DNA of 64,000 nt from NCBI RefSeq assembly GCF_988242995.1, contig NZ_OZ547043.1; one strand, given 5' to 3'. Under the pieces are notes generated by a model that saw only the letters and a list, made by a program, of their open reading frames with translations, did not search any database and was not told the DNA's origin. This document shows positions 22,792-38,230 of this stretch, piece after piece. A program made the translations under genes and the position numbers. The stretch's first letter is position 1; every line of letters starts with the position of its first letter.

Positions 22792-24590
22792 TAGTAGACA
22801 TCTCGCTGATAACGGCGCTCTACGCGCAGCTCACTTAAAAATTCATCCGCCGCTTCGGTGTCCATGCCACCAAATTCGGCAATCACTTCCAGAAGTGCCT
22901 GCTCAACGTCTTTCGCCATGCGATTAGCGTCGCCGCAGACATAAATGTGGGCACCGTCATTGATCCAGCGCCACAGCTCCGCGCCCTGTTCGCGCAGTTT
23001 GTCTTGTACATAAACTTTTTCTTTTTGGTCGCGCGACCAGGCAAGATCGATGCGGCTCAATACGCCTTCTTTCACGTAGCGCTGCCACTCCACCTGGTAG
23101 AGGAAATCTTCCGTAAAGTGTGGGTTGCCAAAGAATAGCCAGTTTTTACCCGGCGCTTCGTCGGCAGCACGCTGCTGCATAAAGGCACGGAACGGCGCGA
23201 TGCCGGTGCCAGGGCCAATCATGATCACCGGGGTTTCCGGGTTAGCGGGCAGGCGGAAGTTGTCGTTATGTTCGATAAAGACGCGGACTTCACCCTCTTC
23301 TTCCACACGATCCGCGAGGAAGCTGGAGGCACCACCGGCACGGGCGCGGCCTTCCACGTCGTAACGCACCACACCAACGGTAACGTGCACTTCGTTCTCG
23401 ACTTCCGCCTGCGAGGAGGCGATGGAATACAGGCGCGGGGTCAGCGGGCGCAACAGATTAATCAGCGCTTCGGCATCCAGTTGCGCCGGAGAGAAACGCA
23501 CCATGTCGACAATCGGCGTGGTCGCGGCGTAATGCTGTAACTTCGCTTTATCGCCCACCAGCGGCAGCAGCGTTTCGCTGCGGGTAAGCGTGGCATAGTT
23601 CTCAACAATGTTGGCGGTGTTGACGGTCAGTTCGAAGTGCCACTGTAGCGCTTCGTTCAGCGGCAGGGTTTTGCCGTCAACGGTGACAGTTTCATCGCCT
23701 TTCAGCCACAGCAGTTCGACAAGTTCTTTCACCAGTGCCGGATCGTTCTGATACCAGACGCCCAGCGCGTCACCCGGCTGGTAACGCAGGCCCGAGTCAC
23801 CTAAGTCAATTTCGATATGGCGAACGTCTTTTTCAGAGTTACGCCCGGTAATTTTCTGGTTAACAGAGAGGCTCGCCACCAGCGGCGCGTCTTTGCTGTA
23901 CGGGCTGGTGTGGATTTCATTTACCGCGCCAGTAGCGACGGATTGCGAAGGTGCCGCGACAGGCGCACGCGATTTAAGCGCATCAACCACGCGGGCGCGC
24001 CACTCGCTGGCAGCGGCCTGATATTCAACATCGGCATCGACACGGTCGAGCAGGCGTTCACCGCCCAGTTCCGCCAGCTTACTGTCAAAATCTTTCCCGG
24101 ACTGGCAGAAAAATTCATAAGAGCTATCGCCGAGGCTAAACACGGCAAACGCGGTGTTTTCCAGCTTTGGCGCTTTTTTGGAGAACAGGAACTTATGCAG
24201 CGCGACGGCTTCTTCCGGCGGTTCCCCTTCCCCTTGCGTTGACGTCACCACGATGAGCAGTTTTTCGCTGGCGATTTGTTTGAATTTATAGTCGCCCGCG
24301 TTCACCAGCTTAACGTTCAGTTTTGCCGCTAATAAATCATCGCGTAATGCTTCAGCAACCCGGCGCGCATTGCCGGTTTGCGAAGCGGAGATAATAGTTA
24401 TACCCGGCATTTCTGCGGCGGGCGCTGGCGTCGCTGCAAGCGCAGCAGGCTGCTGGTTGAGCACGCCCCAGAAATAGCCAGAAACCCAGGCAAGCTGGGT
24501 GGGAGTTAAATCGGTCGTGGCCGCCTGAAGGCGTGCCAGTTGCTCCGGGTTCAACGGAAGCAACGCGGAAGGTGGGACCTGTGTCGTCAT
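22791..24590 (-). CDS. cysJ: Sulfite reductase flavoprotein alpha subunit
   Basis: ORF track 599 aa, flavodoxin plus FAD/NADPH reductase domains. Confidence 0.95.
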
Positions 24591-24905
24591 GCGTCGTTAT
24601 GTTCCAGTAAGCAAAGCTGTTTCTGCGCCCTGTCAGCGCCCATAAAACAGAAGAGAAGGTAAGGTTAACGGGGTGAACGGTGTGGATTAAAGACGGGATA
24701 GCGATAACTAATAACCAAATCGACTAACCTGTTTTAGCAATAGTCTTTAACAACAAAATAGATTAACCAACCCAATGAAAAACAAATGAATTTAGCCAAT
24801 CATTAAGATAAATCAGCGATTTTGCGCAACAAAGTCGTTTTAGATAATGCGAAAAAACAGCCTTTCCGGTACTCTACGGCGGTTTTATCGTCCTGTAGAG
24901 AAATT

Positions 24906-25271
24906 ATGATGTCCACCACGTTATTTAAAGATTTCACCTTCGAAGCCGCTCACCGCTTACCACACGTCCCGGAAGGGCATAAATGTGGTCGCCTGCACGG
25001 ACATTCCTTTATGGTGCGACTGGAAATTACCGGGGAAGTCGATCCGCATACGGGCTGGATTATCGATTTCGCTGAACTGAAAGCGGCATTTAAACCAACC
25101 TATGATCGCCTCGATCACTATTATCTCAATGATATTCCTGGCCTGGAAAACCCGACCAGCGAGGTTTTAGCAAAATGGATTTGGGATCAGGTTAAACCGG
25201 TTGTTCCGCTGTTAAGTGCGGTTATGGTGAAAGAAACCTGCACCGCAGGTTGCATCTATCGCGGCGAATGA
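24906..25271 (+). CDS. queD: 6-carboxy-5,6,7,8-tetrahydropterin synthase
   Basis: ORF track 24822..25271; start set at [35 protein letters not shown] (121 aa); codon-by-codon check confirms stop at 25269-25271. Confidence 0.92.
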
Positions 25272-25348
25272 TAAGAGTGTGTCGGCGGTCAATTTCCCTT
25301 AAGTAACGCCATGTTAGGGTGTTGTGTTCTGGATATCTGGGGCATGAC

Positions 25349-26620
25349 ATGGAAGACGACTGCGACATTATTATTATTGGTGCGGGTATAGCAGGCACCG
25401 CTTGTGCTTTACGCTGCGCGCGGGCAGGTTTGTCCGTTCTGTTACTGGAACGCGCTGAAATCCCCGGCAGCAAAAATCTTTCCGGCGGGCGTTTATACAC
25501 CCATGCGCTCGCGGAACTCCTCCCGCAATTTCATCTGACCGCGCCTCTTGAACGACGCATCACTCACGAAAGCCTTTCTCTGCTAACGCCGGATGGCGCA
25601 ACGACGTTTTCCAGCTTACAGCCCGGCGGTGAATCCTGGAGTGTATTACGTGCACGGTTCGATCCGTGGCTGGTTGCCGAAGCCGAAAAAGAAGGTGTCG
25701 AATGCATCCCTGGTGCGACGGTGGATGCGCTGTATGAAGAAAACGGCAGGGTGTGTGGTGTCATTTGTGGTGACGATATTCTCCGCGCCCGTTATGTGGT
25801 GCTGGCAGAAGGTGCCAACAGCGTCCTGGCTGAACGTCACGGGTTAGTGACTCGTCCTGCTGGCGAAGCGATGGCGTTGGGGATCAAAGAAGTGCTGTCG
25901 CTGGAAACATCCGCTATTGAAGAACGTTTTCATCTGGAGAATAACGAAGGCGCAGCGTTGCTGTTCAGCGGCGGGATCTGTGATGACTTACCCGGCGGCG
26001 CATTTCTTTATACTAATCAACAAACGCTCTCGTTAGGGATTGTTTGCCCGCTCTCTTCCCTTACGCAAAGTCGTGTTCCGGCAAGCGAGCTGCTGGCTCG
26101 CTTTAAAACGCATCCGGCAGTGCGCCCGCTTATCAAAAACACGGAATCACTGGAGTATGGTGCGCATCTGGTGCCAGAAGGTGGCTTGCACAGTATGCCG
26201 GTGCAATACGCCGGTAACGGCTGGCTGCTGCTGGGCGATGCGTTGCGCAGTTGCGTCAATACCGGAATTTCCGTGCGCGGCATGGATATGGCGCTAACTG
26301 GCGCGCAGGCGGCGGCACAAACGCTGATAAGCGCCTGCCAGCACCGCGAGCCGCAAAATCTGTTTCCGCTTTATCATCACAACGTCGAGCGCAGCCTGCT
26401 ATGGGATGTTCTACAACGTTATCAGCATGTTCCGGCGCTTTTGCAACGCCCTGGATGGTACCGTGCGTGGCCTGCGTTAATGCAGGATATTTCCCGCGAT
26501 TTATGGGATCAGGGTGATAAACCTGTTCCACCGCTGCGCCAGTTATTCTGGCGTCATTTACGTCGTCACGGCCTGTGGCATCTGGCGGGCGATGTTATCA
26601 GGAGTCTGCGATGTCTGTAG
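25349..26620 (+). CDS. ygcN: FAD-dependent ETF-quinone oxidoreductase-like protein (FixC family)
   Basis: ORF track 25319..26620; internal start MEDDCDIIIIGAGIAGTACAL gives a Rossmann GxGxxG N-terminus (423 aa). The upstream alternative start is possible. Confidence 0.85.
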   Translation: MEDDCDIIIIGAGIAGTACALRCARAGLSVLLLERAEIPGSKNLSGGRLYTHALAELLPQFHLTAPLERRITHESLSLLTPDGATTFSSLQPGGESWSVLRARFDPWLVAEAEKEGVECIPGATVDALYEENGRVCGVICGDDILRARYVVLAEGANSVLAERHGLVTRPAGEAMALGIKEVLSLETSAIEERFHLENNEGAALLFSGGICDDLPGGAFLYTNQQTLSLGIVCPLSSLTQSRVPASELLARFKTHPAVRPLIKNTESLEYGAHLVPEGGLHSMPVQYAGNGWLLLGDALRSCVNTGISVRGMDMALTGAQAAAQTLISACQHREPQNLFPLYHHNVERSLLWDVLQRYQHVPALLQRPGWYRAWPALMQDISRDLWDQGDKPVPPLRQLFWRHLRRHGLWHLAGDVIRSLRCL

Positions 26621-26871
26621 CCCGTAATCTCTGGCGCGTTGCCGATGCGCCGCACATTGTTCCGGCTGACTCCGTTGAGCGCCAGACGGTACAACGGTTG
26701 ATTAACGCTTGTCCGGCTGGTCTTTTTTCGCTCACACCGGAAGGTGACTTACGCGTTGATTATCGCGGCTGCCTGGAGTGTGGCACCTGCCGTTTGCTGT
26801 GCGACGAATCAACACTACAACAGTGGCGCTATCCGCCTTCCGGATTCGGCATCACCTACCGTTTTGGATAA
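26611..26871 (+). CDS. ygcO: Ferredoxin-like protein (FixX family)
   Basis: ORF track 26575..26871; start set at MSVARNLW (86 aa); overlaps ygcN end. Confidence 0.85.
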   Translation: MSVARNLWRVADAPHIVPADSVERQTVQRLINACPAGLFSLTPEGDLRVDYRGCLECGTCRLLCDESTLQQWRYPPSGFGITYRFG

Positions 26872-26887
26872 ATAATAAGGATAATTT

Positions 26888-27463
26888 ATGCCCCTCTTAC
26901 ACCTGCTCCGCCAGAATCCGGTGATTGCTGCCGTTAAAGATAATGCCAGCCTGCAACTGGCAATCGACTCTGAATGCCAGTTTATTTCCGTGTTGTACGG
27001 CAATATCTGCACCATTAGTCAAATCGTTAAAAAGATTAAAAATGCCGGAAAATATGCTTTTATTCATGTTGATTTGCTGGAAGGCGCGTCAAATAAAGAA
27101 GTGGTGATTCAGTTTTTGAAACTGGTGACTGAGGCGGACGGCATTATCAGTACCAAAGCCTCAATGTTGAAAGCGGCAAGAGCGGAAGGTTTTTTCTGTA
27201 TTCATCGCCTGTTTATTGTTGATTCAATTTCGTTTCACAACATTGATAAGCAAGTTGCGCAATCGAATCCGGATTGTATTGAGATCCTGCCAGGCTGTAT
27301 GCCTAAAGTGCTGGGCTGGGTGACGGAGAAAATCCGCCAACCGCTGATTGCCGGCGGGCTGGTGTGCGATGAAGAAGATGCGCGTAATGCGATTAACGCA
27401 GGTGTCGTGGCGCTTTCCACCACAAATACCGGGGTCTGGACGCTAGCGAAAAAATTGCTTTGA
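26888..27463 (+). CDS. ygcP: GlpP-family putative transcription antiterminator
   Basis: ORF track 191 aa, recognised as the GlpP-like (glycerol-3-phosphate responsive antiterminator family) protein YgcP. Confidence 0.85.
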   Translation: MPLLHLLRQNPVIAAVKDNASLQLAIDSECQFISVLYGNICTISQIVKKIKNAGKYAFIHVDLLEGASNKEVVIQFLKLVTEADGIISTKASMLKAARAEGFFCIHRLFIVDSISFHNIDKQVAQSNPDCIEILPGCMPKVLGWVTEKIRQPLIAGGLVCDEEDARNAINAGVVALSTTNTGVWTLAKKLL

Positions 27464-27499
27464 CGGGATAATCGTAACGAATTGAATTTGTGTGATTTG

Positions 27500-27609
27500 T
27501 AGGCTGCACGCCACATCCGACATTCAGCGCCTGATGCGACGCTTGACGCGTCTTATCAGGCTTACAAGTCCCCAAGCCAGAACCGTAGGCAGGATCATCC
27601 GGCAGCACG
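27500..27609. repeat. Cluster of REP-type palindromes (BIME-like) between ygcP and ygcQ
   Basis: Central unit GCCTGATGCGACGCTTGACGCGTCTTATCAGGCTTACA (about 27529-27566) flanked by two weaker REP-like units. Confidence 0.7.
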
Positions 27610-28470
27610 TTATTGGCAATCTGCGTGAATGGTTGTCACCAGTGCCTCCAGCACCGCTTTCCAGTCATCAACCACGCCAACATCTGCCTGTGAAAATACC
27701 GCTGCACTGGCGTCATGATTAATCGCCACCACAAACTTGCTATTGCGTACGCCCGCCATTAACGCTGCTGCGCCGGAAGCGCCAACGACAATACACACCT
27801 CAGGTGCCAGCAGATGTCCAGAAATACCAATCACTTTTTCGGCATCAACGCCACCATTCATCACTCGTGCCCGACTGTAGCCCACTTCGGCTCCCAGCTT
27901 TTCTGCCAGCATAGCGATTTCCTGGTTATCTGCCTCTCCGCCCTGCCCCACCACCAGCACCCGTCTGGCCTCAGCTAATGGGTCACGGGTAACATTTTTC
28001 AGATCCTCTGTGCTAACCAGCCAGTCGGGAAGCGCGCCGGGGACAATGTTCAGTTGCTGCATACCAGAGGGCAATGTGGCGTTTTTCACTGCTCCCGCCT
28101 GGCGGGCAAGGGAAAGGCATAGCGGGCGTTTTTCTGTTTGCAGCGTCGCCGTTAGCGCATTTCCCCAGTGGGATTTGCGCACGCTTACGGTTGAAATATC
28201 TAACGAAGTCACCTGGCAGATGCTTGCACCATGTAAACGCCAGGCCAGCCGGGTCGACAGTTCATCACCAAACGTTCCCGGCGGAAAGAGAACAACGTCC
28301 GCTGGCGTTCGCTGCCACTGTTCCACCAGCGCATCCAGCACCTGTTCCGCCACTACGGGCTGAGGTTCAATCTGCCAGTGTGCCAGGGTACAACCGCTGA
28401 AATCCTGTTCTGCCAGCCAGCTCGCTATTGCGGCATTCTCCTGATTTATTGTCACAATTGCGATATTCAT
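27610..28470 (-). CDS. ygcQ: Electron transfer flavoprotein alpha-subunit-like protein (FixB family)
   Basis: ORF track 27610..28503; start set at MNIAIVTINQ (286 aa) to give the usual 4 nt overlap with ygcR. Confidence 0.85.
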   Translation of the reverse strand: MNIAIVTINQENAAIASWLAEQDFSGCTLAHWQIEPQPVVAEQVLDALVEQWQRTPADVVLFPPGTFGDELSTRLAWRLHGASICQVTSLDISTVSVRKSHWGNALTATLQTEKRPLCLSLARQAGAVKNATLPSGMQQLNIVPGALPDWLVSTEDLKNVTRDPLAEARRVLVVGQGGEADNQEIAMLAEKLGAEVGYSRARVMNGGVDAEKVIGISGHLLAPEVCIVVGASGAAALMAGVRNSKFVVAINHDASAAVFSQADVGVVDDWKAVLEALVTTIHADCQ

Positions 28471-29246
28471 GGCTGCATCCTTTGGCGTAAATAGTCCTGC
28501 CATAGCTTTTGCGCTTTTTCTGCTACCGTTTGCCCATCAATCAGCGTCGCTCCGCGTTGTTGCTCTGCTCTTGCCAGTTGCAGACACTGCATCGCTGGCG
28601 ATTCGGCAGCAACAGTTTTACGGATAATTGCTGCTTTCCCCGCCGCCATTCGCTGACGCATTCCCGGTACTGGCAAGGCCACTTCACCGCACTGACGCAC
28701 GGCAATCACCGCAGGCAAGCGAACCCGGCAACAGCGCAGCCCGTTTTCAGTACGCTGTTCGAGGGTGATAAACAGCGCGTCGAGAGTGAAACGCTCCACC
28801 TGGGTGAAGCAGGGCCAGCCCAGCATTTCCGCCAGCAAAAATGGCGTTTGCCCATTCTGCCCTTCGCTGCTTTGGCAGCCGGTAATTATCAGATCCAGCG
28901 GATTCTGACGCTGCCATTCGGCAATATGGCGAGCGACAAATTCCGGCGCAAAGCGCAGATCTGCCGCCGTCTCCAGTAATACAGCTTCCTCAAACCCAAG
29001 AGCCATGAGATAGCGCAGCCAGTGCAACGCCCGTTCATCCCCCATGCTCAACGCGGTTAAAGACATCGACGTACCGTTTTTTCTCTGCGTCAACAGCAGC
29101 GCGGCGGCAGCCTGTTCATCAGCACCGAGTAAACTTCGCAGAAGCGAAACATCCGGTCCGCTATTACCCTGAGCCGCCGCCTGCCACTCTTTTTCCGCCA
29201 GCATTCCGGCATCCGGTTCGGCTTTAAACGCTAACAGAATGTTCAT
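28467..29246 (-). CDS. ygcR: Electron transfer flavoprotein beta-subunit-like protein (FixA family)
   Basis: ORF track 28467..29252 (261 aa); start at first or third Met. Confidence 0.85.
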   Translation of the reverse strand: MNILLAFKAEPDAGMLAEKEWQAAAQGNSGPDVSLLRSLLGADEQAAAALLLTQRKNGTSMSLTALSMGDERALHWLRYLMALGFEEAVLLETAADLRFAPEFVARHIAEWQRQNPLDLIITGCQSSEGQNGQTPFLLAEMLGWPCFTQVERFTLDALFITLEQRTENGLRCCRVRLPAVIAVRQCGEVALPVPGMRQRMAAGKAAIIRKTVAAESPAMQCLQLARAEQQRGATLIDGQTVAEKAQKLWQDYLRQRMQP

Positions 29247-30561
29247 TCGCACCTCCTACATTTCCCGCCGCCACCAGCGGGAGTGCTTTGGTTTCTGGTG
29301 CCCATAGCCAGGTCACGACAAAACCAACCAACAACACTGCCGCCAGGAGCAATAAGGTGACTTGCATTCCCCACTGCGCCAGCACCCACGGCAGCAGGCC
29401 AGTACTTACCGCCGCCCCCAACCGACTCATGGCGGTGGCAAAACCGACGCCCAGCGAGCGAATGTCAGTAGGAAAACTTTCCGCAGGCAAAATGCCCACC
29501 AGATTACTGACTGCCGAAATGGTGGTGCTGAAGAGAACAAAAAGCAGCAGCGTTAATGAACTGCCGGAAGGCAAACAGGCCATCACTACCAGCGTTGCCG
29601 CCAGCAGCAAAAAACTTCCCAGCAAAAATTTGCGATGTGCCAGCAGGTGCGTCAGAACTAATCCCAGCAGCGCGCCAACAATTAACAACGCATTAAGCAT
29701 CAGGCTGGCGGTCAGCGCATCTTCCAGACCAATAGTTTGGGCAATGGTAGGCAGCCAGGTATAAATCACAAACCATGGGATTACGAGGCAGACAAAGAAG
29801 ACGCTGTTAAACGCCGTGCGCCGCCAGTAGCGCGAAGAGAACAAGGTTTTGATGTGTTTATGGGTCGCCGTTGCCACTTCATCGCCCAGTAAAACATGGG
29901 GACCAAAATAGCGATGCACGATAGCGTGAGCTTCTGCAAAACGCCCCTGGCGCAGTAGCCAGCGTGGCGATTCTGGCGTTCCCCAGCGTAATAACGTAAT
30001 CAACAACGCGGGCAGAGCTGCCGATGCCAGCAGCCAGCGCCAGGCCTCCGGGCTTTCGCTAATAAAGTGATGTCCGGCAATACTTGCCAGCACATAGCCT
30101 ACGGTCCACACCACACTGAATGCGCCCAGCAAAATACCGCGATGGCGGCGCGGGGAAAATTCAGCCAGCAAGGTGTGACCGACTGAGTAATCGCCTCCCA
30201 GACCAATGCCGATCAAAATGCGTAGTCCAATAAGATGCTCTGGCGTGGTGGCAAAAAATTGCAAGAACGAAGCGAGCGTAATCAGCAAAAAGCTGAAGGT
30301 GAAGATTTTTTGCCGACCAATATAGTCGGAGATCCACCCCAAAACCAGGCTACCGATAAACAGGCCAAGTAGCGCCGAGCCGCCAATCATTCCCGCCATA
30401 AACGGCGTCAGTTGCATGGCGGGCGTAAGCTGAATAATGGCGTAACCAATGACGCCGAGAACATAACCGTCGGTCAGGTGCGCGCCGAAAGTGAGCGCAG
30501 CAATTCGACAGTGAAAACGGTTAAGCGGTAAATCATCCATTCGCACCGGTGAAGTGTTCAT
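29224..30561 (-). CDS. ygcS: MFS transporter (sugar-porter type)
   Basis: ORF track 29224..30633; start set at MNTSPVRMDDLPLNRFH (445 aa); multiple TM helices. Confidence 0.85.
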   Translation of the reverse strand: MNTSPVRMDDLPLNRFHCRIAALTFGAHLTDGYVLGVIGYAIIQLTPAMQLTPFMAGMIGGSALLGLFIGSLVLGWISDYIGRQKIFTFSFLLITLASFLQFFATTPEHLIGLRILIGIGLGGDYSVGHTLLAEFSPRRHRGILLGAFSVVWTVGYVLASIAGHHFISESPEAWRWLLASAALPALLITLLRWGTPESPRWLLRQGRFAEAHAIVHRYFGPHVLLGDEVATATHKHIKTLFSSRYWRRTAFNSVFFVCLVIPWFVIYTWLPTIAQTIGLEDALTASLMLNALLIVGALLGLVLTHLLAHRKFLLGSFLLLAATLVVMACLPSGSSLTLLLFVLFSTTISAVSNLVGILPAESFPTDIRSLGVGFATAMSRLGAAVSTGLLPWVLAQWGMQVTLLLLAAVLLVGFVVTWLWAPETKALPLVAAGNVGGANEHSVSV

Positions 30562-30591
30562 CTTTACCCCTTCATTGTCCGGTAATAAGAA

Positions 30592-30613
30592 CGGCTTCTC
30601 GCCTGAGAAGCCG
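30592..30613 (-). terminator. Intrinsic-terminator-like hairpin between ygcU stop and ygcS start
   Basis: Perfect 9 bp stem CGGCTTCTC / GAGAAGCCG with 4 nt loop; on the minus-strand RNA it is followed by UUCUUAUU. Confidence 0.5.
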
Positions 30614-30654
30614 AAAAGGCAACGCTCCGTCATCGCGGAACGCTGCCTGACACA

Positions 30655-32109
30655 TTATTTTTCAATCGGATAGATAGTACCCGTATTCATAATGCCGTTA
30701 GGATCGAACTGCTTTTTCAGCCCTTCCAGCAACGCCCACGCGCTGCCGTGTTCCAGCTTGCTCCAGTGAACGCGATGTTTACCAATGCCGTGGTGGTGCA
30801 CCATCGAACCACCGAGGCGAATGGTTTCTTCGCAGATGATTTTGTTGAGCGGATTGTGGTACTTGTCGATTTCCTCTTCCGGCTTACAGTCAACGACGTT
30901 GTAGTCGTAGACGAAGTACATGTTGGTGCCGTTCTGGTAGCTATGAGAGGAGTGACCGCCCAGCATGGTGATGTCGTCGGCGTGCGGGAACTCGGTACGA
31001 ATACGGTTAATAACGCTTTCGTAGATTTCGTGGATGCAGCTCCAGCAGCCGGACACTTCGGTGGTAAAGCCCATGTTGCCGGTTTTGAGGATCTGCACAC
31101 GTTCAGCGGCCACTTTATCCGGCCCCCAGTTCAGGTGATTAAACCAGGTTTCGATCAGCTTGCTGTCCACTCGCTGGCATTGCGGGTAACGTGCCACGAT
31201 TTCCGCAATCCCTTCGCCTGTCGCCTTCGCAATGCGAGGGTTGCCTTCAGCCATAAAGATCAGCACACATTTACCATCGGCAAAATGGGTGAAGTGTTGG
31301 GTGCCATCTTCAGCGTCATACAAACGAGCGATCGACGGACGATACCCTTCCACCATGATTTCACGCAGGATGTTGAAGCCGGTTTTCATGTCTTCCAGGA
31401 TATAGCCGTAGAAGAGGTTGTTTTCCGGGGTGAACTTAAAGATTTTCACAGTTACTTCAGTGATATAGCACAATGCACCTTCGTTGCCGATGATGATGTG
31501 ACGAATGTCCGGGCCTGCCGCGCGGCGTGGTACGTTTTTAATGCGTGTTACGGTGCCATCAGCCAATACTGCTTCCAGACCAACGACCATATCTTCGATT
31601 GCGCCGTAGAGTGTGGAGAACTGCCCGATACTGCGGGTTGCTACCAGGCCGCCCATCTGCGCCAGCGGCTTTGACTGCGGAGAATGCCCCGTGGTGTAAC
31701 CTTTTTCACGCAACGCGTTTTCCAGCACTTCCAGCAGAACTCCGCATTGCGCCGTGGCCTGCATATTCTCAATATCAATATTAATGATTTGATTCATGGC
31801 AGAGCCGTCGAGCACCACCGAGTTTTCCACAACGGTTTCCAGCCCACCTTCGGTAGCGGAAGCACCGGTACGCGGCACACCGTTAATTTTGTGCGCATTC
31901 ATAAAATTCAGCACACGGGATACTTGTTCTGTGGAACCGAGTTTTACGACCGCTGCCGGAATCGGCAAAGTATAAATGCCATGAATATCCGGAAATTTGC
32001 GAAAACGGTCAATACTGTTCTTCTTTAATACTGTTTCATCGGTAATTACGCGATCTGCACCAACAATTTCCTTTAGCTGGTCGACAATCGCTGCGCGAGA
32101 TAAAGACAT
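30655..32109 (-). CDS. ygcU: FAD-linked oxidoreductase (alkyl-DHAP-synthase / D-lactate dehydrogenase-like)
   Basis: ORF track 484 aa with FAD-binding PCMH-type N-terminal half. Confidence 0.88.
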   Translation of the reverse strand: MSLSRAAIVDQLKEIVGADRVITDETVLKKNSIDRFRKFPDIHGIYTLPIPAAVVKLGSTEQVSRVLNFMNAHKINGVPRTGASATEGGLETVVENSVVLDGSAMNQIINIDIENMQATAQCGVLLEVLENALREKGYTTGHSPQSKPLAQMGGLVATRSIGQFSTLYGAIEDMVVGLEAVLADGTVTRIKNVPRRAAGPDIRHIIIGNEGALCYITEVTVKIFKFTPENNLFYGYILEDMKTGFNILREIMVEGYRPSIARLYDAEDGTQHFTHFADGKCVLIFMAEGNPRIAKATGEGIAEIVARYPQCQRVDSKLIETWFNHLNWGPDKVAAERVQILKTGNMGFTTEVSGCWSCIHEIYESVINRIRTEFPHADDITMLGGHSSHSYQNGTNMYFVYDYNVVDCKPEEEIDKYHNPLNKIICEETIRLGGSMVHHHGIGKHRVHWSKLEHGSAWALLEGLKKQFDPNGIMNTGTIYPIEK

Positions 32110-32178
32110 AGTAATTCCTTCCTGATAATAAAAATGGAATAATCATTAATAAGAGAAAACAGAAACCACCGTTATGGA

Positions 32179-32964
32179 TTAGCGCACTAAATAACCGCCA
32201 TCAACCACTAATAAATGTCCGTTGACATAATTCGATGCCGGACTTGCGAGGAATACGGCTGCGCCCATTAAATCCTGAGTATCGCCCCAACGGTTTGCCG
32301 GAATATGATCAAGAACGCGCTGGTTAGTTTCTGGATTACTACGGGTCGCCAGAGTGATATCGGTAGCGTAATATCCCGGAGCAATACCATTTACCTGAAT
32401 ATTATATTGACCTAGTTCATCACAATAAGCTTTGGTGAACCCGGCAAGAGCATGTTTAGTGGCAGAATATGCAGGTGACCATTGTCCACCTAAGTAAGAG
32501 AATAATGAACAGATATTAATGATTTTACCGCTTTTCTGCGGGATCATAATTTTTGCAGCTTCATAGCTTAACTCGAATGCGGCGGTCAGGTTCACATCAA
32601 TCATCGGGTCCCAGTCGGCACGACCGAAGTCCAGCACCTTATTCAGCTTACAAATACCGGCATTGTTAATCAGAATATCGACGGTACCGAAACGTTCGCA
32701 ACAGGCGGCGATTATCTTCTGCGGCGCGCCTTCTGCGGTGATATCCACCTGCATGAAGTCCACCTCAACACCCTGTTTTTCAATCATTTCCTTTGTTTCG
32801 CCGTTATCTTTAACGAAGCTTGGAATAAAGATATTTGCGCCTGCTTTGGCCAGCGCCATGGCAAATGCCTGGCCTAAACCGCTATTCCCGCCGGTAACAA
32901 TTGCGGTTTTACCTTTCAGGGAGAAAAAATCCATTGAGAACGCATTGAGAGATTCGATTGACAT
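32179..32964 (-). CDS. ygcW: Short-chain dehydrogenase/reductase
   Basis: ORF track 32179..33039; start set at MSIESLNAFSMDFFSLKGKTAIVTGGNSGLG (261 aa). The longer ORF would translate straight through an obvious terminator hairpin and A9 tract. Confidence 0.88.
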   Translation of the reverse strand: MSIESLNAFSMDFFSLKGKTAIVTGGNSGLGQAFAMALAKAGANIFIPSFVKDNGETKEMIEKQGVEVDFMQVDITAEGAPQKIIAACCERFGTVDILINNAGICKLNKVLDFGRADWDPMIDVNLTAAFELSYEAAKIMIPQKSGKIINICSLFSYLGGQWSPAYSATKHALAGFTKAYCDELGQYNIQVNGIAPGYYATDITLATRSNPETNQRVLDHIPANRWGDTQDLMGAAVFLASPASNYVNGHLLVVDGGYLVR

Positions 32965-32988
32965 AGTTAGCTCCAATTTCCGTAAGGC

Positions 32989-33036
32989 AAAAAAAAAGAA
33001 AGGTAACTTCCCCCGCGAGAGGGAAGTTACCTTTCT
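32989..33036 (-). terminator. Strong intrinsic-terminator-like hairpin plus U8 in the ygcW 5' leader
   Basis: Perfect 16 bp stem (32997-33012 pairs with 33021-33036), 8 nt loop CCGCGAGA, then on the minus-strand RNA eight U (plus A-run 32989-32996); ends 24 nt upstream of ygcW ATG. Confidence 0.7.
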
Positions 33037-33088
33037 CATTATCTCTGGTAACTGGAGATAATTTTTATCATAAGGGCATAATCGCTAA

Positions 33089-33104
33089 TGTGATCGTAAT
33101 CACA
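33089..33104. promoter_or_regulatory. Candidate CRP binding site in ygcW/yqcE divergent region
   Basis: TGTGATCGTAATCACA, a perfect TGTGA-N6-TCACA palindrome. Confidence 0.6.
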
Positions 33105-33210
33105 GTGTGATATTCGAATTGTCAAATAATTTTAAAAAGCAGAAGCGTGATTACTCTCACACAACACCACTACTTTCCATGTTATTTCTTATTGCAATTA
33201 CTAGAGACCT

Positions 33211-33258
33211 GAGAAAAGTAATCCACCTGAAAGGGCGGCTTACTTTTCTCTTTTTTTT
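33211..33258 (+). terminator. Intrinsic-terminator-like hairpin plus T8 in the yqcE 5' leader
   Basis: Perfect 11 bp stem GAGAAAAGTAA / TTACTTTTCTC with 18 nt loop, followed by TTTTTTTT (33251-33258); ends 24 nt upstream of yqcE ATG (33283). Confidence 0.65.
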
Positions 33259-33282
33259 GTCTATTACAAATGGGAATACGAT

Positions 33283-34560
33283 ATGCAACACAACTCATAT
33301 CGCCGTTGGATAACCCTCGCGATAATTAGTTTTAGCGGCGGCGTTAGTTTCGACCTGGCTTATTTACGTTATATTTATCAAATTCCCATGGCGAAATTTA
33401 TGGGATTCAGCAATACCGAGATAGGTTTAATAATGAGTACCTTTGGTATTGCGGCTATTATTCTTTATGCCCCCAGCGGCGTTATTGCCGATAAATTTTC
33501 ACACCGCAAAATGATTACTTCCGCGATGATCATTACCGGATTACTGGGTCTGTTAATGGCAACATATCCACCGCTGTGGGTAATGCTCTGTATTCAGGTC
33601 GCCTTTGCGATAACGACGATTTTAATGCTGTGGTCGGTGTCGATTAAAGCCGCCTCGTTGCTGGGCGATCATAGCGAGCAAGGGAAAATTATGGGCTGGA
33701 TGGAAGGGCTGCGCGGCGTCGGTGTAATGTCGCTGGCGGTGTTTACCATGTGGGTCTTTTCTCGCTTTGCACCGGATGACAGCGCCAGCCTGAAAACGGT
33801 CATTATTATCTATAGTGTGGTTTACATTCTGCTGGGCATTTTGTGTTGGTTTTTTGTTAGCAATAACAACAACCTGCGCAATACCAATAACGAAGAAAAA
33901 CAGTCATTCCAGCTTAGCGACATCCTGGCCGTTTTGCGCATCAGCACCACCTGGTATTGCAGCATGGTGATTTTTGGTGTCTTCACCATCTACGCCATTC
34001 TGAGTTACTCCACCAACTATCTGACCGAAATGTACGGCATGTCGCTGGTGGCGGCGAGCTACATGGGGATTGTGATCAACAAAATCTTCCGCGCACTGTG
34101 CGGACCACTTGGTGGCATTATCACCACCTACAGCAAAGTGAAATCCCCTACCCGCGTGATCCAAATCCTTTCCGTACTCGGCTTACTGGCGTTAACTGCC
34201 CTGCTCGTCACGAACTCTAACCCGCAATCGGTCGCGATGGGGATTGGCCTGATTTTACTGCTGGGATTCACCTGTTACGCCTCACGCGGGCTGTACTGGG
34301 CCTGCCCTGGCGAAGCGAGAACACCGTCTTACATTATGGGCACCACGGTAGGTATTTGTTCGGTGATTGGATTCCTGCCGGATGTCTTCGTTTACCCGAT
34401 TATCGGCTACTGGCAAGACACCCTGCCCGCTGCAGAAGCCTACCGCAATATGTGGCTGATGGGCATGGCGGCGCTTGCCATGGTGATCGTCTTTACCTTT
34501 TTGCTGTTCCAAAAAATTCGTACTGCTGATAGCGCCCCTGCTATGGCTAGCAGCAAGTAA
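33283..34560 (+). CDS. yqcE: MFS transporter
   Basis: ORF track 425 aa, 12-TM-like hydrophobic profile. Confidence 0.88.
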   Translation: MQHNSYRRWITLAIISFSGGVSFDLAYLRYIYQIPMAKFMGFSNTEIGLIMSTFGIAAIILYAPSGVIADKFSHRKMITSAMIITGLLGLLMATYPPLWVMLCIQVAFAITTILMLWSVSIKAASLLGDHSEQGKIMGWMEGLRGVGVMSLAVFTMWVFSRFAPDDSASLKTVIIIYSVVYILLGILCWFFVSNNNNLRNTNNEEKQSFQLSDILAVLRISTTWYCSMVIFGVFTIYAILSYSTNYLTEMYGMSLVAASYMGIVINKIFRALCGPLGGIITTYSKVKSPTRVIQILSVLGLLALTALLVTNSNPQSVAMGIGLILLLGFTCYASRGLYWACPGEARTPSYIMGTTVGICSVIGFLPDVFVYPIIGYWQDTLPAAEAYRNMWLMGMAALAMVIVFTFLLFQKIRTADSAPAMASSK

Positions 34561-34586
34561 GTCCAGAAAATTACAGGAGAAAAATC

Positions 34587-36065
34587 ATGTCGAAAAAATA
34601 CATCATAGGGATTGATGGTGGAAGTCAGAGCACAAAAGTGGTGATGTACGATCTGGAAGGTAATGTGGTTTGCGAAGGCAAAGGCTTATTGCAGCCGATG
34701 CACACGCCAGATGCCGATACCGCAGAACATCCTGACGACGATTTATGGGCATCATTATGCTTTGCCGGTCACGATTTGATGAGTCAGTTTGCCGGAAATA
34801 AAGAAGATATTGTCGGTATTGGTCTGGGATCCATCCGTTGCTGCCGTGCGTTATTGAAAGCCGATGGCACGCCAGCTGCGCCGTTGATTAGCTGGCAGGA
34901 TGCACGCGTTACACGCCCTTACGAACATACGAATCCTGACGTGGCATATGTCACCTCTTTTTCAGGTTATCTGACGCATCGCTTAACCGGCGAGTTTAAA
35001 GACAATATCGCCAACTATTTTGGTCAGTGGCCGGTGGATTATAAGACCTGGGCATGGAGTGAAGATGCCGCAGTCATGGAGAAGTTTAATATCCCCCGTC
35101 ATATGCTGTTTGATGTGCAAATGCCGGGCACTGTTCTTGGGCATATCACTCCTCAAGCCGCGCTGGCGACACATTTCCCGGCTGGGCTGCCGGTTGTTTG
35201 TACCACCAGTGATAAACCGGTTGAAGCACTGGGAGCTGGGTTACTGGATGATGAAACGGCGGTAATTTCTCTTGGCACTTACATCGCGCTGATGATGAAC
35301 GGCAAAGCACTGCCGAAAGATCCGCTGGCGTACTGGCCGATTATGTCTTCTATTCCGCAAACATTGCTGTATGAAGGTTACGGTATCCGCAAAGGCATGT
35401 GGACGGTGAGCTGGCTACGCGACATGCTAGGCGAGTCGTTAATTCAGGATGCCAAAGCACAGGATCTTTCACCGGAAGATTTACTCAACAAAAAAGCGTC
35501 TTGTGTGCCGCCAGGCTGTAATGGTCTGATGACGGTGCTGGACTGGCTGACCAATCCGTGGGAACCGTACAAACGCGGGATTATGATCGGCTTTGATTCC
35601 AGCATGGATTACGCATGGATATATCGTTCGATACTGGAAAGCGTGGCGCTGACGCTGAAGAACAATTTCGACAATATGTGTAATGAAATGAATCACTTTG
35701 CAAAGCATGTGATCATTACTGGCGGCGGTTCGAACAGCGATCTGTTTATGCAGATTTTTGCCGACGTGTTCAACCTTCCGGCACGCCGTAACGCCATTAA
35801 TGGTTGTGCAAGCCTGGGGGCAGCGATTAATACGGCGGTAGGTCTGGGGCTATACCCGGATTACGCAACGGCTGTCGACAAAATGGTTCGCGTGAAAGAT
35901 ATCTTTATGCCTGTTGAGAACAATGCCAAACGCTACGACGCGATGAATAAAGGCATTTTCAAGGAGTTAACCAAACATACTGATGTAATCCTGAAAAAAT
36001 CGTATGAAGTGATGCATGGGGAATTGGGGAATGCGGATTCGATCCAGAGCTGGTCGAATGCGTAA
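34587..36065 (+). CDS. ygcE: FGGY-family carbohydrate kinase
   Basis: ORF track 492 aa, N-terminal IGIDGGSQSTKVV (FGGY kinase signature). Confidence 0.88.
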   Translation: MSKKYIIGIDGGSQSTKVVMYDLEGNVVCEGKGLLQPMHTPDADTAEHPDDDLWASLCFAGHDLMSQFAGNKEDIVGIGLGSIRCCRALLKADGTPAAPLISWQDARVTRPYEHTNPDVAYVTSFSGYLTHRLTGEFKDNIANYFGQWPVDYKTWAWSEDAAVMEKFNIPRHMLFDVQMPGTVLGHITPQAALATHFPAGLPVVCTTSDKPVEALGAGLLDDETAVISLGTYIALMMNGKALPKDPLAYWPIMSSIPQTLLYEGYGIRKGMWTVSWLRDMLGESLIQDAKAQDLSPEDLLNKKASCVPPGCNGLMTVLDWLTNPWEPYKRGIMIGFDSSMDYAWIYRSILESVALTLKNNFDNMCNEMNHFAKHVIITGGGSNSDLFMQIFADVFNLPARRNAINGCASLGAAINTAVGLGLYPDYATAVDKMVRVKDIFMPVENNAKRYDAMNKGIFKELTKHTDVILKKSYEVMHGELGNADSIQSWSNA

Positions 36066-36111
36066 GTGAGGAAGACCGGGCGGGAAACTGCCCGGCCTGA
36101 ACATACCTGAA

Positions 36112-36249
36112 TGGTTATCCCCGCTGGCGCGGGGAACATAAGTTCGACAACTTAAAAAATGATAACAAGTCCGGTTTATCCCCGCTGATGCAGGGAACAT
36201 AATAAAAACTTTAACTAGTTCGGTTTATCCCTGTTTTTACAAGGAATAT
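36112..36249 (-). CRISPR. Degenerate CRISPR remnant (3 decayed repeats)
   Basis: TGGTTATCCCCGCTGGCGCGGGGAACAT, CGGTTTATCCCCGCTGATGCAGGGAACAT and CGGTTTATCCCTGTTTTTACAAGGAATAT, separated by 32 bp and 20 bp. Confidence 0.75.
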
Positions 36250-36702
36250 TAACTACACTCGATGTATTTAGAATAAAAGACAATACGAATCGCACTTTAT
36301 CAATTTTCACTTAAAGTATGAACTGGATATCTTTATTCATAAGAACTATTCATCAACAGCGTATAGAGGCGATTATGTAAAACCACTCATTAGCCTCAAA
36401 ACAAAGACAAATTTCCAGATTTATTACTTAATCAATGAATAACAAGCTTAAAAAATACACTGTTATTCTAAAGAAAAAATTAACAGGCATTAATTAATAT
36501 TAAAAAAATAATATGTTAAAATTTCTTAACGGTTTAAGGATTATACAAATAACACTTTGATTAAATTTTATTTTTTGTATCGATAATTGTGAACTTGTCA
36601 TATATGGAGAGCTATTTTGAACATGAGGTGTTACGTGGATATGTTGCTTAATACGAGTACTGCTAATATAAAAACTTGAGAAAGAGATAACGGGTTATAT
36701 GG

Positions 36703-37219
36703 TGGTTTATTCCCGCTGGTGCGGGGAACTCATCAGTGATATCCAACATTGCGGAGCTAAACGCGGTTTATCCCCGCTGGCGCGGGGAACTCAATTAGCC
36801 CGCCTCGCGCGGGTTTTTTTGTGCCGGTTTATCCCCGCTGGCGCGGGGAACTCTTTACTTATCTGCAAATATTTTTTGTCAGCTGCGGTTTATCCCCGCT
36901 GGCGCGGGGAACTCACGAACGCGGCACACCAGGGCGTCTCATCGTCCGGTTTATCCCCGCTGGCGCGGGGAACTCGAACACGACAGGAGTGATAAATGTA
37001 CGCACATCGGTTTATCCCCGCTGGCGCGGGGAACTCGGCTGATAGTGCTTCTGATTATTCGGCGCAAGCGGTTTATCCCCGCTGGCGCGGGGAACTCTAG
37101 GACCCAATATAAAACCGACTGGTTATTTTCGGTTTATCCCCGCTGGCGCGGGGAACTCTTTCAGTCTGGAACACAACGGCGTTAAATAACCGGTTTATCC
37201 CCGCTGGCGCGGGGAACTC
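36703..37219 (-). CRISPR. Orphan CRISPR array, type I-E repeats, 9 repeats and 8 spacers
   Basis: Repeat CGGTTTATCCCCGCTGGCGCGGGGAACTC, period 61 bp, starts 36703 (degenerate distal repeat, 3 mismatches), 36764 ... 37191; 32 bp spacers; leader on the right; no adjacent cas genes. Confidence 0.97.
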
Positions 37220-37300
37220 ACTAAACATAACCTATTATTAATTATTGATTTTTTAAGTCAGTCACAATCTACCAACTTAACAGAAACACACAAACAACAC
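37220..37300 (-). promoter_or_regulatory. Leader of the second CRISPR array
   Basis: AT-rich; contains CACAATCTACCAACTTA at 37264-37279, matching the first array's leader motif at the same distance from the last repeat. Confidence 0.7.
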
Positions 37301-37558
37301 ATCCATTATGTTAAAGAGCACTTAATTCATTGATTGAAAAGCCAAATATTTAAAGTAATTCTATACCGACTAAAATCCACCAAACTCCGACGTAATAATT
37401 TTCACTCCAACGAAAAATTAACGCCACAGAATTTGTAGATAATGACAATGATTAGTCCGGAATGGGCAAAATGGATGAGTTTTCAGAGGCGACAAAAAAT
37501 ATAAATGAGTGGAAGTCTTTACAGGTTCCACCCATTTATAACGCTTATAAATGTTTAA

Positions 37559-38230
37559 TCAGGCAATATTTAAATATTTATGTGTTTGCATCGACAAACG
37601 CCAGTTGCGCGCAATGCACGTATCGATACATAAACGAGTAGCATCTTCCTTTTGGCTAATCGGCTGCAGCGCAATGACTCGCGGTTTATCATCGGTCAGT
37701 GTTGCCAGTAGTTCATCCAGTGCTTCAATATCACGCACGCGTCCCACTGGATGCTTGATTTCGTTGGCTCGCTCCAGTGCCTGTGACAACACTTCATAGC
37801 CGCCGCGCATGTTCAGCTTTGGCGATACGGTAACCCAGGTATTCGGTGTGCAGCGTACTTCATGAGTACCACTGGTTTCGATCTGGCAGCTAAAACCGTT
37901 CTTTTCGAGCAGGTCAGTCAGTGGCAGCAAATCATGAATGCAAGGCTCACCACCCGTAATCACCACATGCCGCGCGGTGTATCCCTGGCGACCAATGACA
38001 GCCAGCAAGTCTTCACTGCTCGCCGCCCCCCACTTATCACTCTCTTTGGTCTTCGCCAGAATGCTGAAAAGGGAGACTTCCCGATCCTCAAGCTTTTCCC
38101 AGGTGTGTTTGGTGTCGCACCAGGCACAGCCAACCGGGCATCCCTGTAAACGAATAAAAATGGCGGGGACGCCGGTAAAGTAACCCTCACCTTGCAGGGT
38201 CTGGAACATCTCGTTAATCGGGTACTGCAT
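37559..38230 (-). CDS. queE: 7-carboxy-7-deazaguanine synthase (radical SAM)
   Basis: ORF track 223 aa with CxxxCxxC-type cluster motif (GCPVGCAWCDT). Confidence 0.93.
   Translation of the reverse strand: MQYPINEMFQTLQGEGYFTGVPAIFIRLQGCPVGCAWCDTKHTWEKLEDREVSLFSILAKTKESDKWGAASSEDLLAVIGRQGYTARHVVITGGEPCIHDLLPLTDLLEKNGFSCQIETSGTHEVRCTPNTWVTVSPKLNMRGGYEVLSQALERANEIKHPVGRVRDIEALDELLATLTDDKPRVIALQPISQKEDATRLCIDTCIARNWRLSMQTHKYLNIA

Follow-up and report, generated by a model that had tools for sequence, protein, structure and literature searches.

The ygcU-ygcS junction harbors a perfect GC-rich hairpin, referred to below as hairpin 2, which is found at the orthologous place across the Enterobacteriaceae, shows covarying base pairs and is followed by a T-rich tail. 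On balance, it appears to be a leaky intercistronic intrinsic terminator and 3'-end stabilizer that lowers ygcSRQ relative to ygcWU. It belongs to the known class of internal operon terminators and attenuators, where it is itself uncharacterized. Taken by itself, hairpin 2 is of minor importance, and its value lies mainly in a contrast: the antitermination test applied to it revealed the probable antitermination targets of the cluster, a pair of twin leader RNAs preceding ygcW and yqcE, which represent the more interesting result.

The 601 nt surrounding the site are matched in 5093 of 5426 complete E. coli genomes, with around 96% identity to most of them, including K-12, and 99.5% to strain Ecol_316. 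The source of the window (the whole 64-kb stretch of DNA that was analyzed) is identified by its sequence as Escherichia coli DNA. Like ygcW, ygcU and ygcS, the ygcR and ygcQ genes lie on the minus strand, ygcS overlapping ygcR and ygcR overlapping ygcQ, and the plus strand carries ygcN, ygcO and ygcP on the upstream side and yqcE and ygcE on the downstream side (Table 1). Synteny of the three groups yqcE-ygcE, ygcW-ygcU-ygcS-ygcR-ygcQ and ygcN-ygcO-ygcP is kept across Enterobacterales, and for a core composed of ygcP, ygcW, ygcU and ygcE it extends to Firmicutes. The literature searched on the function or regulation of ygcU, ygcS, ygcW and ygcP consists of SELEX promoter tables, one remark in a D-serine transcriptome and screens, none of which deals with the ygcU-ygcS junction.

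Table 1. Features of the ygc cluster in the window, with the terminator score d where it was calculated
Feature	Position	Strand	Basis	Terminator score d (ranking alone meaningful)
ygcP, GlpP-family (PF04309) antiterminator protein gene	26888..27463	+	Pfam PF04309, E 1.4e-62, full length	
ygcS gene, from the conserved ATG	29224-30561	-		
Possible weak structure, ACCGG and UGAAG of the 5' UTR with CUUCA and CCGGU of codons 3-6	30545..30583	-	folding	
ygcS Shine-Dalgarno AAGGGG (30572-30567) and conserved start ATG (30561-30559)	30559..30572	-	orthologous YgcS alignment	
U-rich tail UUCUUAUU, 6 U of 8, interrupted at positions 3 and 6	30584..30591	-	sequence	
Hairpin 2, CGGCUUCUC-AGGC-GAGAAGCCG, perfect 9-bp stem and tetraloop	30592..30613	-	sequence, terminator scan, folding, conservation	about 2
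Hairpin 2 orthologues				-56 to +44
Hairpin 1, (A)GGCAGCGUUCCG-CGAUGA-CGGAGCGUUGCC(U), 12-13-bp stem	30617..30648	-	folding, Escherichia-specific	about 11
In-frame ATG in the hairpin 1 loop, PGAP start of ygcS (469 aa)	30631..30633	-	RefSeq/PGAP annotation	
ygcU gene, stop codon TAA at 30657-30655	30655-32109	-		
ygcW gene	32179-32964	-		
ygcW leader RNA, terminator/antiterminator switch, candidate YgcP target	32986..33055	-	CM R1 80 bits, E 3e-14	about 56 (leader terminator)
yqcE leader RNA, second copy of the switch, opposite strand	33194..33260	+	CM R1 76.8 bits, E 1.4e-13	

The spacer separating ygcU from ygcS on the minus strand measures 93 nt and reads, as RNA, TAA-UGUGUCA-(GGCAGCGUUCCG-CGAUGA-CGGAGCGUUGCC)-UUUU-(CGGCUUCUC-AGGC-GAGAAGCCG)-UUCUUAUUACCGGACAAUGAAGGGGUAAAG-AUG, where the first parentheses enclose hairpin 1, described below, and the second hairpin 2. 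The stem of hairpin 2 is made of nine Watson-Crick pairs (six G-C and three A-U) closed by a 4-nt loop, the minus-strand DNA being CGGCTTCTC AGGC GAGAAGCCG followed by TTCTTATT (30591..30584). Alone, it folds with -14.9 kcal/mol (ViennaRNA), and it is present in both the MFE and the centroid structures of the 131-nt junction, which as an entire segment has a z of -4.1, with none of 200 shuffles as stable. The hairpin lies 41 nt past the ygcU stop codon and its stem ends 30 nt ahead of the ygcS ATG (30561). The first-pass annotation had described a same-strand ygcW-ygcU-ygcS-ygcR-ygcQ string with a hairpin between cistrons, a perfect 9-bp GC-rich stem with a tetraloop, and a site between the ygcU stop and the ygcS start, 30 nt before the ATG, and the gene map, the sequence and the folding agree with it on all these points.

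When the 93-nt spacer was shuffled with its dinucleotides preserved, a perfect stem of at least 9 bp with a loop of 3-8 nt arose in 31 of 20000 sequences (0.16%), and eight distinct hairpins of this quality are present in the window. Hairpin 2 ranks third among the 31 sites returned by a terminator scan of 14 kb, and its stem-loop is of the type found in intrinsic terminators (GC-rich, about 5-14 bp, loop of 3-8 nt). A scan of positions 24000-38000 against Rfam 15 with E up to 1 gave no match at the junction, and three weak matches away from it that are all far below the gathering scores. Hairpins 1 and 2 each occur as a single copy in the window and at a median of one place per genome in 5092 E. 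coli genomes; an identity with REP, BIME or ERIC repeats was rejected for both on account of this single-copy occurrence.

In most E. coli genomes, RefSeq/PGAP annotates ygcS from the ATG at 30633, which places both hairpins inside the coding sequence. According to this annotation, the spacer would hold the first 24 codons of a YgcS of 469 aa and the palindrome would be incidental, as could be argued from the prevalence of the long form in RefSeq and from the frame between ATG 30633 and ATG 30561, which is open in all Escherichia sequences. We regard this as highly improbable, given that the alignment of the 40-odd orthologous YgcS sequences begins in every case at Met 30561, that the upstream in-frame ATG (codon -24) is found in Escherichia only, and that other genera mostly lack an upstream in-frame start and have a spacer of just 52-64 nt. 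Moreover, AAGGGG is located 5 nt ahead of ATG 30561, whereas ATG 30633 is not preceded by a good Shine-Dalgarno sequence, the substitutions in the region track base-pairing and not codon logic, and some RefSeq records have no CDS over the hairpin. The ATG at 30633 is probably not the real start of ygcS, and the junction spacer is treated here as untranslated because both the orthologue comparison and the Shine-Dalgarno sequence favor the start at 30561. The analysis of the hairpin thus flags a probable mis-annotation of the ygcS start codon in most RefSeq E. coli genomes.

Directly upstream of hairpin 2 lies hairpin 1, which is limited to Escherichia. Its stem includes two G-U pairs, folds with -21 to -23 kcal/mol and begins 6-7 nt past the ygcU stop. 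Counted from the 12-bp stem, its tail is UUUUCGG, the first U of which (30617) closes the optional 13th pair. One of its pairs follows a U-A / U-G / C-G series among Escherichia lineages. This hairpin is absent from the description given in the first-pass annotation.

The conservation of hairpin 2 was examined from a YgcU scan with one genome per species, which yielded 63 loci. Each of the 34 Enterobacteriaceae junctions examined has a hairpin at the orthologous place, its end lying 19-32 nt ahead of the ygcS ATG, and the remainder of the spacer is unconserved. In a plain MAFFT alignment of these 34 orthologues, 92.3% of the hairpin 2 cells are paired and changes on both sides are observed at eight of the nine pairs; none of 500 shuffles reaches these values, and controls slid to other positions pair at 39-58%. 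The consensus in most genera is GGCUUCYC-N4-GRGAAGCC, and differing stems are found in others (GGCUCCUC/GAGGAGCC, GGCUUUUC/GAAAGCC, GCCGGCUC/GAGCCGGC, GUCGGCUC/GAGCCGAC and GUGCGGUCUC/GAGGCCGCAC), with free variation of the loop sequence. Among E. coli genomes, the 42 nt comprising hairpin 2 and its tail are 100% identical in 5007 out of 5092, to be compared with the ~96% identity of the 601-nt surroundings to the window. The stem is interrupted by a C-A mismatch in one lineage of Escherichia (L002).

In five lineages, hairpin 2 tolerates insertions of 40-200 nt that separate it from the ygcU stop. The spacer of Klebsiella, Raoultella, an Enterobacter sp. and Citrobacter koseri contains inserted ERIC-like elements of 50-200 nt, which in every case lie on the upstream side of hairpin 2. 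Unrelated GC-rich hairpins follow the ygcU stop in more distant Enterobacterales (Limnobaculum, Budvicia, Rahnella and Serratia; loci L034-L036, L042, L046 and L052), and a hairpin is also present past this stop in loci where ygcU is the last gene, from which it seems that the element probably originated as a terminator of ygcWU.

The quality of the putative terminator was ranked with a score d of the d'Aubenton-Carafa type (1990), calculated with ViennaRNA energies, so that its ranking alone is meaningful (Table 1). On this scale, which serves for ranking, about half of the hairpin 2 orthologues are at or below zero. The 10 nt past the stem contain a mean of 5.8 T in the orthologues, and the hairpin is constant across genera while the U-tract ranges from canonical (T7-T8) to poor. 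Citrobacter sedlakii, Pluralibacter, Mixta and others have canonical T6-T8 runs, in many cases together with a 5' flank rich in A, with T6-T8 tails in loci L014, L015, L016, L017, L019, L020 and L021. The terminator-like character attributed to the hairpin in the first-pass annotation is therefore upheld by its conservation in 34 orthologues, with covariation and a T-rich tail. With its 9-bp stem and interrupted U-tract, the Escherichia version is predicted to be a marginal intrinsic terminator, and in the low-scoring genera the hairpin may act mainly on RNA stability or processing.

No promoter-like site with at least 9 of 12 matches was detected on the minus strand from ~30540 to 31980. Since no promoter is predicted and the 30-nt gap ahead of ygcS is filled by the tail and the Shine-Dalgarno sequence, ygcSRQ must be transcribed through hairpin 2. 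The MG1655 Term-seq tables of Adams 2021 (PMC7815308), which cover LB OD 0.4, LB OD 2.0 and M63 glucose, all of them non-inducing for the operon, list no 3' end at the junction (K-12 28977xx-28980xx, about 2897.89-2897.92 kb), an absence that carries little weight under these conditions, and the supplements of TERMITe make no mention of the ygc genes.

In every Enterobacterales locus, an RNA element of a different kind precedes ygcW and also yqcE (87 distinct sequences). Its consensus is CAGUUACYAGAGA-N3-5-UGAGAAARGUAAC-(variable hairpin top)-GUURCYUUUCUC-U8-9, and its signature, TTACYAGAG-N3-6-GAGAAARGTAA, overlaps the 5' arm of a terminator, which then follows. The upstream GUUACY can pair alternatively with RGUAAC, which is part of this 5' arm. 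The antiterminator helix is 98.1% paired with three of six pairs compensatory, the terminator is 97.3% paired, and covariation links one column to each of its two alternative partners. Copies of the leader also adjoin PF04309 genes in a Syntrophomonadaceae MAG, a Firmicutes MAG and Enterococcus canis, where one copy lies between ygcP and ygcE. A comparison of the leader RNA with Rfam 15 gave no match. In MG1655, Term-seq 3' ends are located at 2900311(-), 38 nt before ygcW (40640 reads, intrinsic score 15.8), and at 2900556(+), 36 nt before yqcE (intrinsic score 11.4), both of them outside Rho regions (PMC7815308, supplementary files 1 and 3). The first of these 3' ends confirms in K-12 the ygcW leader terminator that had been put forward from the sequence of the window.

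YgcP is a full-length protein of the PF04309 (GlpP) family, and the ygcW and yqcE leaders are its probable targets. The B. subtilis glpD terminator sits between glpK and glpD. GlpP of this species acts on several glp regulon terminators (PMC9604022, PMC10573289), and the sequence of its binding site, sought for direct comparison, was not found in the literature searched. The twin leaders, which have no Rfam family and lie near PF04309 genes from Enterobacterales to Firmicutes, offer a tangible starting point for working out what YgcP does in E. coli.

A covariance model built from the leader RNA (CM R1) was used as a test of hairpin 2. In the window, it recovers exactly the two leaders and their antisense echoes. 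At 30540-30660, a segment that includes hairpin 2, it gave no leader-type match with the filters off and E up to 10, and the score of hairpin 1, 9.9 bits (E 4.3) on either strand, is typical of palindromes in general. The model likewise gave no match at the ygcU-ygcS junction in 62 loci, and none there when seven genera, among them the ones whose hairpin 2 is strong, were searched with the filters off. A pattern search with the primary leader motif returned one site in the window, in the ygcW leader. When the 130 nt upstream were searched in 34 orthologues for an antiterminator partner of the hairpin 2 5' arm, no conserved position emerged, the best duplexes being weak (-4 to -16 kcal/mol) and scattered. 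Since there is neither a CM match nor a conserved alternative pairing, hairpin 2 is, as judged from its sequence, not a copy of the antitermination module of the cluster. Two resemblances were considered and rejected: the conserved UUACCGGACAAUGAAGGGGUA located 3' of hairpin 2 is similar to the leader motif GUUACCAGAGAUAAUGAGAAAGGUAA, a likeness treated as chance plus Shine-Dalgarno because the model missed it, and a CUUCCC..GGGAAG stem top common to hairpin 2 orthologues and the ygcW leader is missing in the yqcE leader and is thus not a common recognition feature.

The preferred reading takes hairpin 2, which separates the enzyme genes ygcW-ygcU from the genes ygcS-ygcR-ygcQ for transport and electron transfer, as an intercistronic hairpin of the Rho-independent-terminator type. 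We infer that a fraction of the transcripts initiated at the ygcW promoter would end at this hairpin, with their 3' end protected by the stem, and that the remaining ones would read through it, so that ygcSRQ would be expressed below ygcWU. The terminator would have a low intrinsic strength in Escherichia, with the lineage-specific hairpin 1 in tandem upstream. In most other genera, where the stem is 8-9 nt past the ygcU stop, the terminating ribosome may suppress the terminator and make read-through dependent on ygcU translation. In this way, hairpin 2 could explain how one promoter gives ygcWU above ygcSRQ in an uncharacterized catabolic cluster of sugar type.

Other explanations have to be weighed against this one. 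Hairpin 2 could be a conditional terminator suppressed on induction by YgcP or another factor, which would couple ygcSRQ to ygcWU only in the presence of the inducer. This would be consistent with a full-length PF04309 YgcP that is syntenic with the cluster across phyla, with the terminator/antiterminator switches of the operon leaders, at which 3' ends occur in vivo, and with the action of B. subtilis GlpP on several glp terminators (PMC9604022, PMC10573289); the leader copy between ygcP and ygcE of Enterococcus canis indicates that intercistronic copies are possible, and the strong hairpin 2 of some genera (L014, L015 and L016) would need overcoming. We nevertheless consider it quite unlikely in view of the absence of any CM R1 match at the junction, the single occurrence of the primary motif in the window and the lack of a conserved alternative pairing for the 5' arm. 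Moreover, the loop varies freely, and the insertion of ERIC-like elements and of hairpin 1 just upstream has left hairpin 2 in place; as these upstream insertions did not cost hairpin 2, it appears to need no fixed upstream partner. The Escherichia version would in addition need no antiterminator for read-through because it is a marginal terminator with an interrupted U-tract. The antitermination-controlled pathway suggested in the first-pass annotation is thus supported for the cluster, which has a GlpP-family YgcP and two leader switches, but not for hairpin 2 as a controlled gate, which has no CM match, no alternative pairing and a marginal U-tract. The rph-pyrE and pyrBI attenuators are ribosome-sensitive terminators near stop codons. 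Hairpin 2 could be an attenuator of this kind, the ribosome ending ygcU close behind the RNA polymerase suppressing termination and uncoupling permitting it. In most short-spacer genera, it begins 8-9 nt past the stop (range 5-17), as does the Escherichia hairpin 1 at 6-7 nt, and in a series of tR2 positions the ribosome nearly completely represses terminators ~8-10 bp or less from the stop codon, with full efficiency reached beyond ~30 bp (PMC4824070); on account of this spacing and these data, read-through into ygcS may depend on ygcU translation in the short-spacer genera. The distance from the stop to the hairpin is also weakly and negatively correlated with the terminator score (Spearman -0.35, p = 0.04), which is a hint only, as the sequences are not independent and the value is uncorrected for phylogeny. 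However, at 41 nt the window hairpin 2 lies past the ~30 nt at which ribosome repression fades and outside the spacing of the rph-pyrE type (~10-15 nt of the stop), within which hairpin 1 and the hairpin 2 of the short-spacer genera do fall. The tolerance of 40-200 nt insertions in five lineages and the absence of an evident nucleotide-sensing pause element also speak against translational coupling, and we hold it to be an unlikely explanation.

We give a similarly low probability to a reading of hairpin 2 as a regulated checkpoint, at which read-through into ygcSRQ would occur only with active ygcU translation or with YgcP or another factor, Escherichia having been rewired by a hairpin 1 near the stop and a weakened U-tract. 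If true, it would mean a two-tier control, with leader antitermination first and junction read-through second. An A/U-rich single strand beside a stem is the usual context of RNase E cleavage. The hairpin could accordingly be an RNA stability or processing element that is not involved in termination, blocking 3' exonucleases after an endonucleolytic cut in its A/U-rich tail or shielding the 5' end of a processed ygcSRQ RNA, which would result in segmental differences of mRNA half-life like those due to the REP hairpins of malEFG. In line with such a role, the hairpin is invariably kept while the quality of the U-tract is variable, and the tail UUCUUAUUA is single-stranded, A/U-rich and located beside a stem. 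Against it, the T-enrichment 3' of the stem is conserved, several genera combine T6-T8 runs with A-rich 5' flanks, which is the signature of an intrinsic terminator, and hairpin 2, single-copy in the window and per genome, is not a REP, BIME or ERIC element. Termination and stability roles can also coexist, and a role restricted to stability or processing seems improbable, to about the same degree as translational coupling.

Internal partial intrinsic terminators or attenuators are present in E. coli operons such as rplL-rpoB (the attenuator) and rpsU-dnaG (T1). Hairpin 2 resembles them in being a GC-rich hairpin with a U-rich tail between co-directional genes, in preceding genes that have no room for their own promoter, and in the graded expression of the operon that would be expected. 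It differs from them in that its termination is deduced from the sequence, in that the Escherichia version is weak by sequence criteria, and in the second, lineage-specific hairpin found alongside. With rph-pyrE, pyrBI and the tR2 series (PMC4824070), it shares, in most genera, a position 8-9 nt past the stop, where a terminating ribosome blocks folding; in the window, unlike in rph-pyrE and pyrBI, hairpin 1 alone is near the stop, and there is no sign of NTP-sensitive pausing. The likeness to the B. subtilis glp regulon (glpD, glpFK and glpTQ leaders) concerns the PF04309 gene of the cluster and the ygcW and yqcE leaders, which resemble GlpP targets. Hairpin 2 itself is unlike these targets, being short, devoid of a leader module or an antiterminator alternative, and weak in Escherichia. 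Finally, as a stable intercistronic hairpin able to protect the upstream mRNA, it is comparable to the REP/BIME and ERIC stabilizers, for example in malE-malF, but it is single-copy, has a T-rich tail and occupies one orthologous site across genera, the neighboring ERIC-like inserts being separate from it.

Folding also points to a possible weak structure between the 5' UTR and the first codons of ygcS, which would leave the AUG in a loop and cover half of the Shine-Dalgarno sequence. It is found in the Escherichia, Citrobacter and Klebsiella group, where both of its sides are invariant and thus allow no covariation test.

The probable target of YgcP, the GlpP-family (PF04309) antiterminator protein encoded in the same cluster, is a leader RNA present upstream of both ygcW and yqcE. 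Its consensus reads (C)ARUUACYAGAGA-N3-5-GAGAAARGUAAY, followed by a variable hairpin, YUURCYUUUCUC and a U8-9 tract. The antiterminator and terminator helices are mutually exclusive and both display covariation. In K-12, Term-seq data for MG1655 place 3' ends at the ygcW and yqcE leaders alike (PMC7815308). Moreover, copies of the leader adjoin PF04309 genes from Enterobacterales to Firmicutes (loci L054, L061 and L063 of the YgcU search). A search of Rfam 15 with these RNAs gave no match, and the literature searched contains no description of them.

In the ygcU-ygcS spacer, the hairpin reported by the first-pass annotation (hairpin 2, 30592-30613, minus strand) forms a tandem pair with a second one, hairpin 1, which starts 6-7 nt past the ygcU stop and is found only in Escherichia, as one copy per genome. 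In most E. coli genomes, RefSeq/PGAP annotation starts ygcS at the ATG at 30633, within the hairpin 1 loop, giving a product of 469 aa, while in some O157:H7 records no annotated CDS lies across the hairpin. The ATG at 30561, which would give a protein of 445 aa, is the more likely start, judging by the orthologues, by where the Shine-Dalgarno lies and by other genera having no in-frame start further upstream. The spacer also carries ERIC-like elements (for example ...CUUGAAGUAUGACGGGUAUA...) in Klebsiella spallanzanii, Citrobacter koseri, Enterobacter sp. 10-1 and Raoultella terrigena, in every case inserted upstream of hairpin 2, which still lies 27-29 nt from the ATG. Finally, a weak structure around the ygcS start is possible, in which the AUG would stay in the loop and the Shine-Dalgarno would be partly covered; the sequences offer no covariation as a test of it. 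Its UTR half, UUACCGGAcAAUGAAGGGG, is near-invariant across the Escherichia/Citrobacter/Klebsiella group and is missing from the Pluralibacter/Mixta group.

Features located in the window and, for the ERIC-like elements, in YgcU-search loci
Feature	Coordinates	Strand	Remarks
Leader RNA upstream of ygcW	32986-33055	-	conserved motif
Leader RNA upstream of yqcE	33194-33260	+	conserved motif
Hairpin 1	30617-30648	-	12-13 bp stem, UUUU tail; directly upstream of hairpin 2
ygcS start region, both candidate ATGs	30559-30633	-	annotation vs orthologues
Possible weak structure, ygcS UTR and codons 3-6	30545-30583	-	ACCGG/UGAAG pairing with CUUCA/CCGGU
ERIC-like elements	L006 7453-7640; L008 3686-3799; L009 7453-7708; L056 7453-7628		ygcU-ygcS spacer
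Type I-E CRISPR repeats	36797-36850	+	terminator-like matches (…CCCCGCUGGCGCGGGGA…)
naRNA4/REP-like Rfam match	27529-27561	+	weak, 29 bits, below threshold

The genes of this cluster have diverged to very different degrees: YgcP, YgcW and YgcU share 93-97% identity between Escherichia and Klebsiella/Citrobacter (L006-L031 vs the window), whereas YgcR, YgcQ, YgcO and YgcN share 56-78%. This could reflect relaxed constraint or recombination. Two loci of the search (L003 and L026) look like contamination or mis-binning in public assemblies: the first, deposited under the label of a Planctomycetota MAG, encodes a YgcU 99% identical to that of E. coli, and the second, under the name Chryseobacterium sp., carries an Enterobacteriaceae-type cluster (YgcU, 88%).

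The Term-seq table that lists the leader ends also contains a 3' end within ygcN (K-12 2892741, plus strand; PMC7815308), corresponding to ~25.4 kb in the window, near the ygcN start. It comes after a GC-rich hairpin (…CCGCUUGCGCG…CGCGCGAGCGGGUUUAUCCG) and could represent an ORF-internal terminator of the ygcNOP operon, which encodes the antiterminator. The terminator-like matches at 36.8 kb are CRISPR repeats; the K-12 record has a CRISPR array annotated at this place. The naRNA4/REP-like match falls where ygcP and ygcQ converge, in the gap between the two genes.
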